Source: a virus
Reading direction: 5' to 3' (one strand)
Virus genome (UHGV): UHGV-0207457
DNA length: 36,350 nucleotides
Each line of letters starts with the position of its first letter. Within the stretch, counting starts at the first letter, position 1. Below the pieces are notes generated by a model, which saw only the letters and a list, made by a program, of their open reading frames with translations, was not told the origin of the DNA and did no database searches. The translations under genes were made by a program, and so were the position numbers. Shown piece after piece: positions 32,155 through 36,350 of this stretch.

Positions 32155-33834
32155 TTAAATTCCAAATTCTTGTAATGGACCTGGTATTTCTTCTTCTGGT
32201 TTCCAGTTCTTATCTGTCAGCATGTCTAAACATGGATGCAGAACAAGCCCGTTACTCTCCAGAATCTGCCTATCATTGATAGTCTTCAAATCAACGAAGA
32301 TCCGGCCTTTCCTCGGTCCTCTTGAATTTTCTATTACAACTCTCTGGGTCTTGCCATCGATGTATTCCAGTACAAACAAGTTTTTGTACTTGTCAATCCT
32401 GCTGCACCCGATCCGTTTTAGAGCTTGCTTAATCTTAAACCGGACCTTAATGCGATCCTCGTTGTAAACATCTTCTAAATCAAATTCTGCGAGCTTCTCC
32501 CAGCCTTGAGAGTCAACAGAATACATTTCCTCTTCTGCCATCTTAAGTTGATTGTAGAGTGTTTCACGCTCGCTATTGAGGGTAGTAATCTGATCGGCTA
32601 GCTCCTTCGTTGCTCCTGTCATAGCAGAAAGGGTAATCAGGTTATCAATCTTGCGTGATATTTCATCAATCTGTACTTTCAAAGCCGGAACCGGATTAGC
32701 CTTATCTTCAGCAATCCAGATTTTATCAGCCAGCAATTGCAATACAGCTTTCTCTAATTGGTCGCCGCGAAAACTCCAGTTTGTATGCACACATTCAATA
32801 CGACTAGAGCGCATTGCATCGCATGAATAACGATATTGGTTAGGCCGTCTGTTTGTTCCTTTCACCTTAACCATAGCGGAACCGCAATGTTCACATTTCA
32901 ATAGACCAACACCACTAAGCAAGGGAATAGGTTTAACTTCTTCTTTGTCTCCAAAGTTACATGCTCTAACACCAATGCTTTTCTTAAGGTGATAAAACTC
33001 AGCGTCATCTAGCACACGAGGATAATAATCCTTTAACTCATACTTAACGCCATCTACAGAGATTTCCTTGATACCAATCAAAGCGCGGGTATGGAACAAC
33101 CTTTCAATCATTGCCCGTGACCAGTTTGAATGCCTCTTGTGACTTGCGGCTGGTGGTGGTGTGTATGTCGCGTTAAGGTGATCCAGTATCTCGGCGGTTG
33201 ACCGTCCATTCCTGCGTAATTCCACAACTTCCTGAACAATAGGGAAGAAGACCGGATGAGGAAGCACATAACCAGATGTGGTATCAGTCCACCACATATT
33301 CTTTCCAATTTCCTCGATTGCAACAGCCGGATTTTGTGGATTTTCTTGATGAGCTTTAATCTTAATCAGTGCGCTTGAGTTAGTACGATTGCGCTTAGTC
33401 TGGCTTTCCTCATTACCACGGATGAATAAAAGGATGGAGAACATCAGGTCCATCGGGTTAGCGGTAACAGTATCAAGCGAGTAGATCTTGTTATCCATGC
33501 CAGTAACAATGGTTATCCCCCTACGGATGATTGAAAGGAATAACTCCTGCGCACTGACAATATCGGCACGGGATAAACGGTCCAAGTTTTCGATGAATAG
33601 CCAGCTACCAACAGGAACGGATCTACCTATTGCATCAAGGAAACGAGATAGCGCCCCTGTTTTGGAGTTAGCACCCTTAAACGCAGATACACCCAGATCC
33701 TGATAATCATTTACCAGTTCAAGGTCATACTTTACCGCAATCTCTCTAGCCATCCTGATTTGTCGTTCATAACTCGAACCATCATTCTGACGCATAGACG
33801 AGAAGCGAATATACGAATACAGTTTAGTTTTCAT
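32155..33834 (-). CDS. Large serine recombinase (integrase), 559 aa
   Basis: N-terminal resolvase catalytic domain (YSYIRFSSMRQ ... SYERQ ... ENLDRLSR), central recombinase domain, zinc-ribbon-like CEHCGS...YRYSC, C-terminal coiled coil; ATG at 33834 (track start 33849 is TTG). Confidence 0.85.
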   Translation of the reverse strand: MKTKLYSYIRFSSMRQNDGSSYERQIRMAREIAVKYDLELVNDYQDLGVSAFKGANSKTGALSRFLDAIGRSVPVGSWLFIENLDRLSRADIVSAQELFLSIIRRGITIVTGMDNKIYSLDTVTANPMDLMFSILLFIRGNEESQTKRNRTNSSALIKIKAHQENPQNPAVAIEEIGKNMWWTDTTSGYVLPHPVFFPIVQEVVELRRNGRSTAEILDHLNATYTPPPAASHKRHSNWSRAMIERLFHTRALIGIKEISVDGVKYELKDYYPRVLDDAEFYHLKKSIGVRACNFGDKEEVKPIPLLSGVGLLKCEHCGSAMVKVKGTNRRPNQYRYSCDAMRSSRIECVHTNWSFRGDQLEKAVLQLLADKIWIAEDKANPVPALKVQIDEISRKIDNLITLSAMTGATKELADQITTLNSERETLYNQLKMAEEEMYSVDSQGWEKLAEFDLEDVYNEDRIKVRFKIKQALKRIGCSRIDKYKNLFVLEYIDGKTQRVVIENSRGPRKGRIFVDLKTINDRQILESNGLVLHPCLDMLTDKNWKPEEEIPGPLQEFGI

Positions 33835-33897
33835 ACCATTTCCAAACAAAAACGCCCCTACCGCGTATTATAACGATAGGGGCTAGGTGATTAAAGA

Positions 33898-34317
33898 TTA
33901 AAGAATTTCACGGCAGCTAATCAGGGAATAAGACGTATCACCTTTTTTAACATCAAATATAGGCGCGCCATCTACAGAATGCAGATATTTGATGTAAGAC
34001 TTACCATCTTCGGAACCATAATATTCTTCTTTCTCGTTCTTATCTTCTTTCAGTTTCGGGCTTTTGATTGTTTTATCAAATACCGGATCGTTGAAAGCAA
34101 ATTGACTATTATCATCATTCACTCGAACCTTTACACCGATAAAACCACGGTATTTGCCAGACGGCGCATGATAATAACGGTCGCCATCACTCAGGTAGCG
34201 TGTATCATCTCCTTTATATTCGAAGTAGGAATTGCACACATAATAGGTATAGGTATTAGCATTCGCAGCACCAACCAAACCCAGAGCAAGAACAACACCA
34301 GCGATAATCTTTTTCAT
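33898..34317 (-). CDS. Secreted hypothetical protein (139 aa)
   Basis: RBS AGGAAA; signal peptide MKKIIAGVVLALGLVGAANA; two Cys; AT-rich cargo region. Confidence 0.6.
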   Translation of the reverse strand: MKKIIAGVVLALGLVGAANANTYTYYVCNSYFEYKGDDTRYLSDGDRYYHAPSGKYRGFIGVKVRVNDDNSQFAFNDPVFDKTIKSPKLKEDKNEKEEYYGSEDGKSYIKYLHSVDGAPIFDVKKGDTSYSLISCREIL

Positions 34318-34362
34318 AGTAGAATTTCCTCTTGTTGTTTGAATTACGATATATTTATATCA

Positions 34363-34485
34363 TTAAAAGTTAATGCTAATAATCAGACCAAACACAACCG
34401 CACCAATCAAATCAATCCAGTTAATACACAGCGAATATTCTTTCTTGAATGTCTTAGATGAAATGCCATCATGAAATTGTTTCAT
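34363..34485 (-). CDS. Small membrane peptide (40 aa, C-terminal TM helix)
   Basis: ATG at 34485 after GGGGTGAG; MKQFHDGISSKTFKKEYSLCINWIDLIGAVVFGLIISINF. Confidence 0.3.
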   Translation of the reverse strand: MKQFHDGISSKTFKKEYSLCINWIDLIGAVVFGLIISINF

Positions 34486-34488
34486 TGC

Positions 34489-34625: not shown

Positions 34626-35063
34626 TTAAGCGCGAACGATGGTCAGAGTATCCAGCAAACCTTTTTCGTATAATTCGAAACACGTTTTATATTGCTCAAT
34701 CTTCCAACCGTAGCGGGTGATCTTATTCAGTAGAATAATCACGGTATTCTCATCTAGGTATTGTCCTTGCTTACCAATTACATATGACTCGCGGGATAGT
34801 CTCAGCTTACTGAAACCTTTAACACCTAATTCCTTAGCCACCGCTTTAACCTCGTTAATCTCACCTTCTGCGGCTACATATTCAGCGTCGATAATCTCAG
34901 TTGATGATCTCAGTGCTACCAGAACTAAGGCCATTGCTTCTTCTTCGGTACGAGCAACACCAGCTTTCTCGAAAGTCATCTCACCAAATTTACGAGTCAT
35001 AATATTGAACATTGTCTGTATTCCGTTTAAATCGGCGGGAATAGTACCCGCCAAATTAGACAT
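34626..35063 (-). CDS. Hypothetical protein (145 aa), second gene of a translationally coupled pair
   Basis: ATG at 35063 overlaps the upstream stop (TAATG); no recognised domain. Confidence 0.6.
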   Translation of the reverse strand: MSNLAGTIPADLNGIQTMFNIMTRKFGEMTFEKAGVARTEEEAMALVLVALRSSTEIIDAEYVAAEGEINEVKAVAKELGVKGFSKLRLSRESYVIGKQGQYLDENTVIILLNKITRYGWKIEQYKTCFELYEKGLLDTLTIVRA

Positions 35064-35335
35064 TACTTCTTGCTGATAAACTCTTTAGCGATAAAGTTGA
35101 TTACTTCTTTCAGCTTCTTGTCTGTATCGATGCACGCTGGTAATTCTTCTTTAATATCCTGCGGCAGATACACATTGCCTTTAAAGTGGAGGAAACCATC
35201 ATTACCAATCATGTAGGAGAACATCCATTCACAATCGTTATCCGCTTCCCAGAACGCCAAGGTCTCATCCCCAATCAAGGTAATGTCCATGTTGCGACGC
35301 GCTGCGTAGTTGATGATTGCTTTACCGATGTTCAT
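35063..35335 (-). CDS. Hypothetical protein (90 aa), first gene of the coupled pair at the prophage edge
   Basis: ATG at 35335 with GAGGGGG RBS lying inside a GTACCC/GGGTAC inverted repeat; no recognised domain. Confidence 0.6.
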   Translation of the reverse strand: MNIGKAIINYAARRNMDITLIGDETLAFWEADNDCEWMFSYMIGNDGFLHFKGNVYLPQDIKEELPACIDTDKKLKEVINFIAKEFISKK

Positions 35336-35339
35336 TGTT

Positions 35340-35365
35340 GTACCCCCTCGTGTTATTGTGGGTAC
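35340..35365. promoter_or_regulatory. Inverted repeat GTACCC-N14-GGGTAC covering the RBS of the 90-aa gene, at the AT-rich to GC-rich transition; candidate translational-control hairpin or att-associated sequence
   Basis: Seen directly in sequence; on the mRNA the GGGGGUAC of the Shine-Dalgarno can pair with the upstream GUACCC. Confidence 0.3.
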
Positions 35366-35569
35366 ATGATATTTGGCAAACCTAAACAGGAGATTACTCG
35401 CCTATTTAACTTGCACCATGCGACAAAAATCGACGCCGTCCAGCTTGCGGCAAAGGCGCTTGGCAAAGAGTTATCGCTGGTGATGGTTTAATTACAGTTA
35501 ACGAAAAGTTGTCATTTTTAACAACTGATATAGACTGCCGAATCATCTGCACATAATTACGATTCGATA

Positions 35570-36350
35570 ATGAAAAAATACCAGCAGCTTGCAGAACAAT
35601 TACGCGAGCAGATTGCGTCGGGTATCTGGCAACCCGGCGATCGTTTGCCTTCGTTGCGTGACCAGGTGGCGCTTTCAGGCATGAGCTTTATGACTGTCAG
35701 CCATGCCTATCAGTTGCTCGAAAGTCAGGGATATATTATCGCACGACCGCAGTCGGGTTATTACGTTGCGCCACAGGCAATAAAAATGCCGAAAGCGCCA
35801 GTCATTCCAGTCACTCGAGATGAAGCAGTCGATATCAACACTTATATTTTTGATATGTTGCAGGCCAGTCGCGATCCGTCGGTCGTTCCGTTTGCCTCGG
35901 CCTTTCCCGACCCGCGACTTTTCCCCCTCCAACAACTAAACCGCTCGCTGGCGCAGGTAAGCAAAACCGCCACGGCGATGAGCGTGATTGAAAACTTACC
36001 GCCAGGAAACGCAGAACTGCGTCAGGCTATTGCTCGTCGCTATGCCTTACAGGGCATCACCATTTCTCCTGATGAAATTGTCATTACTGCCGGGGCGTTA
36101 GAGGCATTAAACCTCAGTTTGCAAGCGGTAACTGAACCGGGCGATTGGGTGATAGTAGAGAATCCTTGTTTCTATGGCGCGTTGCAGGCGCTGGAACGGC
36201 TACGGCTGAAAGCGTTATCGGTGGCGACGGATGTTAAAGAAGGGATAGATCTTCAGGCGTTGGAACTGGCGTTGCAGGAGTATCCGGTGAAAGCGTGCTG
36301 GCTGATGACTAATAGCCAGAATCCACTCGGATTTACCTTAACGCCGCAAA
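35570..36350 (+). CDS. yjiR: Host MocR/GntR-family regulator (N-terminal HTH plus start of the aminotransferase-like domain), YjiR-like; runs off the right edge
   Basis: ATG at 35570; MKKYQQLAEQLREQIASGIWQPGDRLPSLRDQVALSGMSFMTVSHAYQLLESQGYIIARPQSGYYVA is a typical MocR N-terminus and matches my recollection of E. coli YjiR; GC content is clearly higher than the prophage. Confidence 0.6.
   Translation, partial: MKKYQQLAEQLREQIASGIWQPGDRLPSLRDQVALSGMSFMTVSHAYQLLESQGYIIARPQSGYYVAPQAIKMPKAPVIPVTRDEAVDINTYIFDMLQASRDPSVVPFASAFPDPRLFPLQQLNRSLAQVSKTATAMSVIENLPPGNAELRQAIARRYALQGITISPDEIVITAGALEALNLSLQAVTEPGDWVIVENPCFYGALQALERLRLKALSVATDVKEGIDLQALELALQEYPVKACWLMTNSQNPLGFTLTPQ

Follow-up and report, generated by a model that had tools for sequence, protein, structure and literature searches.

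A prophage with a large serine integrase in hicB of Escherichia coli, and sister prophages in ycdX

Here we describe the prophage carried by UHGV-0207457, a stretch of 36,350 nucleotides (the window), together with the Escherichia coli gene in which it lies and the integrase that it encodes. The window begins in hicB, spans the whole prophage and ends in ydcR. A prophage-free K-12-type chromosome (L001) has the gene order hicA-hicB-ydcR, and BLAST aligns window positions 1-112 with the 5' part of hicB (L001 2896-3007, 98.2%) and positions 35373-36350 with the region from the 3' end of hicB to ydcR (L001 3001-3978, 99.2%). Host DNA restarts at 35373-35379, inside the interval of 35,350-35,570 given by the original prediction, and the empty-site comparison, which had been proposed as a refuting test, confirms the boundary. 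The left junction (attL, crossover at 111-112) also lies within the window, so both prophage ends are delimited. Among 5,426 complete E. coli genomes, window positions 35000-36350 are matched in 5,412, with the match starting at 35373 in all but 22, while the uninterrupted hicA-hicB-ydcR site is present in about 5,350.

The host genes on the right side can be assigned from the same alignments. A short plus-strand open reading frame (ORF) had been regarded either as the 3' remnant of a disrupted host gene or as an intergenic chance frame. The first is correct: its last 37 codons are hicB codons 102-138, and a chance frame is ruled out by the match of this stretch to hicB in 5,412 of the 5,426 genomes. 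The neighbor described as yjiR-like does share the architecture of yjiR, a GntR helix-turn-helix (HTH) plus an aminotransferase domain, but it is ydcR, a paralogue and a different gene, and the disrupted gene is hicB. Promoter-like sites for ydcR at 35509-35546 lie on the right-hand, host side of the junction. A tRNA as the integration target was rejected, since the single ARAGORN call, a 91-nt tRNA-Glu(ttc) at 14993-15083 on the minus strand, is located far from both junctions inside a structural ORF of the head-tail region (14758-15228) and is probably a false positive.

Comparison of the junctions places the crossover at two bases. In the window strain, attL and the right junction attR have TTGGCAA in common (106-112 and 35373-35379). 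Strain PI7 is more informative: the base before AA is C in attL and G in attR, the base after AA is C in attL and A in attR, and AA is the sole overlap of the phage site attP and the bacterial site attB when attL, attR and attB are compared. Prophages in a second gene, ycdX, show the same pattern, as their attL (L004), attR (L002) and empty site (L005) overlap at AA alone. Joining the left side of attL, AA and the right side of attR in silico yields the empty site with 0 mismatches for both hicB and ycdX. Across the predicted crossover, the restored hicB reads GAATTGGC-AA-ACCTAAAC, where AA represents the first two bases of codon 102 (K102), and attP reads GGGTACATGATATTTGGC-AA-CCCGAATGTAGTCAACCC; the rebuilt attP core is ...GTTATTGTGGGTACATGATATTTGGC AA CCCGAATGTAGTCAACCCAAAATAAC.... 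Additionally, attP is dyad-symmetric, with 16 of 24 matches when centred on AA and at most 10 of 24 at 29 other offsets (P ~9e-5). A 2-bp non-palindromic crossover, the absence of extended homology between attP and attB, and a symmetric attP are signatures of serine integrases, whereas tyrosine integrases require a longer identical overlap. The attP core varies among lysogens (TTTGGC, TTAGGC, TTAGGG and TTAGGA). These variants are ruled out as determinants of the site, because TTAGGG-AA is found in both hicB and ycdX lysogens.

The integrase gene int is an intact minus-strand ORF at 32155-33849, encoding 564 amino acids (aa) from a TTG codon; in near-identical copies, the RefSeq annotation begins at the ATG at 33834, and the resulting 559-aa protein is termed Int here. 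A large serine recombinase of ~560 aa had been predicted, and the protein bears this out. Specifically, Pfam identifies a Resolvase domain (PF00239, E 2.1e-14, residues 11-158 of the 564-aa ORF), a Recombinase domain (PF07508, 1.5e-07) and a zinc ribbon (Zn_ribbon_recom, PF13408, 1.6e-09), and Int matches PHROG 95 'integrase' at 1.4e-58. In an alignment of 21 homologues with identities down to 27%, R10, the D85/R86/R89 cluster, C314, C317, C338 and C348 are invariant, and S12 is kept in at least 90%. The profile built from this alignment picks up the SPbeta (YokA/SprA), phiC31 and TP901-1 integrases in the PDB. The family occurs in E. coli, Shigella, Salmonella, E. fergusonii and Edwardsiella.

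The domain map of Int consists of a catalytic N-terminal domain (residues 1-125, including R10 and S12), helix E (127-164), a recombinase domain (~196-293), a zinc ribbon (~312-356, with C314, C317, C338 and C348) and a coiled coil (357-437) followed by a C-terminal beta domain. In the AlphaFold2 model (mean predicted local distance difference test, pLDDT, of 78), a resolvase fold and a long helix E precede a helical recombinase domain, which is followed by a beta-ribbon and three long helices. These helices, residues 357-379, 382-406 and 410-437, come immediately behind the strands of the ribbon, mostly at pLDDT 78-89, and are predicted to form the coiled coil. The best Foldseek matches of the model are the full-length SPbeta and phiC31 integrase-DNA complexes (E ~1e-16); the C-terminal domain of the LI integrase bound to DNA (4KIS) matches at E 4e-9, and the catalytic fold matches the TP901-1, gamma-delta and Sin catalytic domains with TM-scores of 0.65-0.71, normalised to the target chain. 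By its domains, conserved residues and fold, Int is classed as a large serine recombinase, with predicted activity. No second recombinase was found in the element: the scanned ORFs have no tyrosine-integrase or transposase match in Pfam or PHROGs, and the only other one of comparable size (3028-4023, 331 aa) lacks a significant match in Pfam.

Together, these findings lead us to the following reading, to which we assign a probability of about 0.88. The element would be a complete, temperate, siphovirus-type E. coli prophage of 35,267 bp, placed in hicB by its own 559-aa serine integrase, acting between an attP of ~60 bp with imperfect inverted repeats and an attB in hicB; the truncated HicB would keep the toxin neutralised, and the choice of site would reside in the recombinase and zinc-ribbon domains. 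Following the mechanism of the family, Int dimers bound to attP and attB would synapse, and Ser12 would make staggered cuts around AA. The subunits would then turn by 180 degrees and the strands religate, producing attL (111-112) and attR (35378-35379), with the non-palindromic AA fixing the orientation of the insertion. Excision would require a phage-encoded directionality factor. Site choice would be encoded by the recombinase and zinc-ribbon domains, so that a sister allele of this module would send near-identical phages to ycdX. The features of the locus are collected in Table 1.

Table 1. Coordinates of the prophage, its junctions, the flanking host genes and the genes around int in the window.
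Feature	Position	Strand	Remarks
Host hicB, 5' part	1..137	+	host DNA to 112, then 8 phage codons; annotated in lysogens as hicB, missing C-terminus
attL	81..142	+	left half of attB + right half of attP; crossover AA 111-112; arms of ~30 bp nominal
Prophage body	113..35377	.	phage genome 35,267 bp with one AA copy counted
90-aa ORF	31893..32165	-	signal-peptide-like N-terminus; overlaps int 3' end; terminator-like hairpin after it, 31856-31835
int, large serine recombinase	32155..33834	-	559 aa; Pfam domains, homologue alignment, AlphaFold model, Foldseek
Terminator-like hairpin	33854..33883	-	directly upstream of int; separates int from attP-proximal genes; consensus scan only
139-aa ORF	33898..34317	-	signal-peptide-like N-terminus; cargo gene, variable among relatives
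Two overlapping ORFs	34626..35335	-	35063-35335 (90 aa, phrog_6147) and 34626-35063 (145 aa, phrog_14908)
attR	35348..35409	+	left half of attP + right half of attB; crossover AA 35378-35379
hicB 3' remnant	35378..35491	+	codons K102-V138 + stop (35489-35491); recognition helix and rest of HTH_3; promoterless pseudogene fragment
Host ydcR, 5' part	35570..36350	+	regulator with GntR-HTH + class I/II aminotransferase (MocR-type)

The int region is found in 62 of the 5,426 genomes, located in either hicB or ycdX. To compare the two types, we used 13 integrase alleles, 7 from hicB and 6 from ycdX. The catalytic domain (residues 1-175) contains 37 variable positions, none of which is diagnostic of the site. 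The recombinase domain and zinc ribbon (176-360) contain 50 variable positions, 24 of them site-diagnostic, and the C-terminal part (361-559) contains 14, of which 5 are site-diagnostic. All 29 site-diagnostic residues are therefore outside the catalytic domain, and 24 are in the two DNA-binding domains. At the DNA level, hicB-type and ycdX-type int are 98-100% identical in the catalytic domain and 77-89% identical over much of residues 180-360, a segment with 34 synonymous and 32 non-synonymous codon differences. A second allele of the catalytic domain (~70% DNA identity, 32 amino-acid changes) is found at both sites. On these sequence comparisons, the int gene is a mosaic, and the correlation between allele and site suggests that the DNA-binding module may set the target.

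The sister prophages in ycdX (L002, L004, L010-L013, L017 and L018) further illuminate this relationship. Those in E. coli belong to the same phage lineage as the window prophage and encode integrases 92% identical to the hicB-type, with a near-identical attP. Like the hicB prophage, the sisters have the AA crossover and the attP-proximal gene cassette throughout; they differ from it in carrying the other allele of Int residues ~176-360 and in using the other attB, at about codon 135 of 245 in ycdX. Farther relatives use the same ycdX codon, with Int identities of 86% in E. coli (L012) and 69% in Salmonella (L013), and the latter has a more divergent left arm of attP, yet the same site. Because the Salmonella relatives also use ycdX, this site is probably ancestral and the hicB site derived. 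The right halves of the two attB sites agree at 14 of 21 bases (GGC AAA CCT AAA CAG GAG ATT in hicB, GGA AAT CCC AAA TAT GAA ATA in ycdX) and both code for G-(K/N)-P-K-x-E-I, a resemblance that offers a simple route to the capture of a new site. Additionally, the right arm of attP gives the same 8-codon tail and stop (NPNVVNPK*) to truncated HicB and to truncated YcdX (attL of L004), since the cut has the same codon phase at each attB. Between 1 and 3 target genes are common for integrase clusters defined at 90% identity (Durrant et al., PMC10083194), so that an integrase cluster with two targets is not exceptional in kind.

The insertion has a defined effect on HicB. In Pfam, HicB contains a HicB_lk domain (residues 3-67) and an HTH_3 domain (residues 88-134), and structures of this protein have been solved (6HPB and 6HPC). 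Integration severs the HTH at the turn that links its helices 2 and 3; the truncated frame then takes in the phage codons NPNVVNPK and stops at a TAA (135-137), so that the predicted protein has 109 aa. This product keeps the N-terminal toxin-binding domain and is devoid of the recognition helix and the C-terminal dimerisation region. Neutralisation of HicA is a function of the N-terminal domain of HicB, and operator binding and dimerisation in E. coli are functions of its C-terminal HTH domain (reviewed in PMC11594946). The HicA toxin is predicted to stay neutralised in lysogens while the autorepression of hicAB is lost.

We also considered whether lysogeny selects against hicA. At least 35 hicB lysogens are present among the 5,426 genomes; hicA is intact in 27 of 35, and the other 8 carry an allele with a 22-bp deletion. 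By a rough, rank-based estimate, this allele occurs in ~18-27% of all genomes, and the lysogens show no enrichment of the frameshift over that background. On this estimate, lysogeny has not selected for toxin loss, which agrees with the predicted neutralisation of HicA in lysogens. The 22-bp allele (L006 1108-1262 versus L007 1086-1262) lies upstream of the window, is found in about one-fifth of complete E. coli genomes and is independent of the prophage.

A broader synthesis of these data is possible, although we regard it as doubtful. Integrases that are 92% identical and act on essentially the same attP would choose ycdX or hicB as a natural matched pair for target specificity, with the difference residing in ~24 residues; and lysogeny in hicB would render HicB dead for DNA binding while still toxin-neutralising, leaving hicAB de-repressed until excision, possibly as a reversible switch.

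It is unlikely that integration into hicB is adaptive, serving as a reversible switch on HicAB, for example by de-repression that excludes other phages or by disarming abortive infection. Such a role would fit a cut exactly between HTH helices 2 and 3 that spares the toxin-binding domain, and the exact rebuilding of hicB upon excision in silico. A role of HicA domains in anti-phage defence has been proposed (PMC10865869), and prophage switches based on large serine recombinases are known, such as SPbeta in spsM (PMC5499854). However, the wider integrase family (86% in E. coli, 69% in Salmonella) uses ycdX, an unrelated phosphatase gene; the match of 14 of 21 bases in the right half-site means that chance resemblance explains the hicB site without any function; and lysogeny works equally in hosts whose hicA is already frameshifted.

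Several points weigh against the reading of the element as an integrase-placed, temperate prophage. The prophage contains no directionality factor recognisable by homology, and no repressor, Cro or replication gene was recognised in it, including the presumed early region (1150-8290). An intact attP, as expected of the excised or virion form, gave 0 matches when IMG/VR, JGI metagenomes and GTDB genomes were searched with a degenerate 24-nt junction pattern. Five IMG/VR contigs, 23.6-35.6 kb long (~35.3-35.6 kb in four cases), do match the pattern of the attP right arm, and a further three contigs came from ENA, but all eight viral or metagenomic contigs carry attL or attR in hicB and are prophages, not virions. 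In addition, the link between module and site is a correlation drawn from a small number of independent lineages, the background frequency in the hicA comparison is a rough estimate, and the effect on hicAB expression is inferred from the literature.

Some of these points would also be expected if the prophage were defective and domesticated, unable to excise, with int a relic and the disruption of hicB a fixed mutation. No attP-containing molecule was found in the collections searched, and no repressor or replication module was recognised. Moreover, decayed copies do exist: int is interrupted by the insertion sequences IS5 and IS1 in one (H44, NZ_CM149869.1), and strain EC7072022BGR has a 30-kb internal deletion (H48, H83, NZ_OY856299.1). 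The latter sequence joins window ~2078 to ~31898, leaving a remnant of ~5.6 kb that retains int. Nevertheless, a full-length integrase ORF is present in all 13 alleles, the family-invariant catalytic and zinc-binding residues are present in this Int, and the set of packaging, head, tail and lysis genes is complete. The hicB lysogens are at ~0.6% frequency, in hosts of varied sources and serotypes and on two hicA backgrounds. This scatter, with relatives at a second site, is not that of vertical inheritance and indicates repeated recent integration among unrelated strains. We consider a defective prophage improbable, somewhat more so than an adaptive switch.

Least credible by far is the proposal that the serine recombinase has an accessory role, as invertase, resolvase or YbcK-like passenger, and that another enzyme integrated the prophage: lambdoid E. 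coli phages such as 4A7, Lambda_4C10 and Perceval do have a YbcK-type large serine recombinase, 30% identical to Int, but here no tyrosine integrase or transposase was detected among the scanned ORFs, int sits 1.5 kb from an attP that is dyad-symmetric about the crossover AA, the 2 bp common to the junctions are too short for tyrosine integrases, and the integration site co-varies with the DNA-binding domains of Int.

Integration of the phage by its own Int thus stays the preferred reading, and as such it is an ordinary large-serine-integrase prophage with a well-known mechanism. What is new is the lineage, its target sites in hicB and ycdX, and the natural specificity pair. In the literature on hicB or ycdX in combination with prophage, serine recombinase, attB or integration site, neither gene was found reported as a prophage site. 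Reports of serine integrases in enterobacterial prophages are rare (PMC5502288). The N-terminus of Int and the attP arms were not found in the supplementary files, possibly incomplete, of the catalogue of Durrant et al. None of the lineage is characterised; a member would represent a new orthogonal integrase, native to E. coli and Salmonella, with defined sites of ~50-60 bp. The choice of attB has been named by the field as an obstacle to the reprogramming of serine integrases (Durrant et al., PMC10083194). The sister alleles, which use the same attP, target hicB or ycdX and differ mainly in two DNA-binding domains, constitute a ready-made experiment on this choice. Furthermore, a truncated 'hicB' pseudogene in a RefSeq annotation can be taken to mark a prophage junction, and an effect on the HicAB module is plausible.

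The morphogenesis genes had been described as lambda-like, which holds only in part, the structural module being a mosaic. On the lambda side are a gpA-type large terminase (PF05876, 1.4e-59; PF20454, 2.6e-46), a portal of the lambda family (gpB; PF05136, 4.2e-64) and a J-type tail-tip C-terminal receptor domain (PF12421, 8.8e-34), while the lambda-like tail-tube families fall under the cut-off (26.6 versus 28.4 bits). The head is of a different kind: a 668-aa protein consists of an S78 prohead protease (PF04586) fused to an HK97-type capsid (PF05065; also phrog_617 and phrog_4523), and a lambda-type head, with gpE capsid, separate gpC protease, Nu3 scaffold and gpD decoration, was not found in the prophage. 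The siphovirus tail module also contains a T-even-type fibre cassette (15238-20939). Within it, the ORF at 16147-19731 (1194 aa) matches the long-tail-fibre distal subunit gp37 (phrog_1699, 1.4e-147), with ~80-83% DNA identity to RB49-like Krischvirus phages, and a gp38-like adhesin gene lies at 20433-20939 (phrog_1121); paralogues of the major tail (tube) protein, at 15238-16071 and 19788-20258, are located on either side. Among the isolated phages in INPHARED, none has this integrase and DNA similarity to the prophage is patchy at most; the best match covers 12% of 24.9 kb and corresponds to the T-even fibre gene.

Just inside attL, a minus-strand gene (370-1149) encodes a secreted protein of the LprI family (lysozyme-inhibitor-like), and part of its DNA resembles the gp37-to-holin region of RB49-like T-even phages. 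The early region offers a few clues, namely a TerS-like ORF at 1508-2062 (phrog_57), 6 kb from TerL, an Ant-like regulator at 6443-7258 and the 331-aa protein at 3028-4023, which is acidic. The small ORFs at 4143-4337 and 7341-7598 have an RPxxF..E..xxIxK motif in common.

At the other end, the cassette of phrog_6147 and phrog_14908 adjoins attP in most relatives examined, HeN100 and L3Cip3 being devoid of an annotated 90-aa gene, and is sometimes annotated as a 'beta/alpha barrel domain' protein. Terminator-like hairpins at 34612-34592 and 33883-33854 lie between this cassette and int. Neither the four small genes that separate int from attR nor the 90-aa ORF that follows int could be assigned a function with Pfam, NCBIfam, PADLOC or PHROGs; the attP-proximal pair are candidates for early genes or a directionality factor. 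Between the endolysin gene and int, the relatives carry differing cargo, including a UvsW-like helicase with UvsY (T4-type recombination genes), a DEAD/DEAH helicase, a GIY-YIG nuclease and a CapR-domain protein (L002 1236-2726; L009 1-404; L012 2936-3973 and 7492-9310; L013 7604-9540; L017 1-308; L027 4328-4909).

Finally, we compared the prophage with known systems. With lambda it shares the gpA-type terminase, the lambda-family portal, the J-type tip domain and the siphovirus tail gene order. It differs from lambda in having the fusion of HK97-type capsid and S78 protease in place of C, Nu3, D and E, the gp37/gp38 fibre cassette, and a serine integrase in place of the tyrosine Int plus Xis, and in that no CI/Cro or O/P genes were recognised. 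Among isolated phages, the nearest integrases are the YbcK-type recombinases (DLP12, 4A7, Perceval) and gp53 of Burkholderia phage Bcep176, with 30% identity over 80-85% of the protein; these belong to the same family as Int and to a different subfamily. The Listeria A118/LI integrase (comK; PDB 4KIS and 6DNW) contains the recombinase domain, zinc ribbon and coiled coil seen in Int, and there too attP is dyad-symmetric around a 2-bp crossover and integration occurs within an ORF. Its sequence is distant and its hosts and targets are different, and recognition of the half-sites is experimental for Listeria, whereas here it is deduced from the correlation of allele and site. The integrase SprA (YokA) of SPbeta, which resides in spsM of B. 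subtilis, has the same domain order as Int and is both its best profile match (9dxh, E 6e-17) and its best fold match (9dxf and 9dxd, E ~1e-16), although the identity in structural alignments is 12-16% and the SPbeta host is Gram-positive. Excision of SPbeta is developmentally controlled with the directionality factor SprB, whereas no such factor or regulated excision is known for the hicB prophage, and the target is a sporulation gene in SPbeta and a toxin-antitoxin regulator here. In both, integration takes place in a protein-coding gene that precise excision rebuilds, here in silico. The hicB prophage thereby resembles the prophages of active lysogeny, SPbeta in spsM and phi10403S in comK, in having a target within an ORF, at hicB codon 102, that in-silico excision restores exactly.

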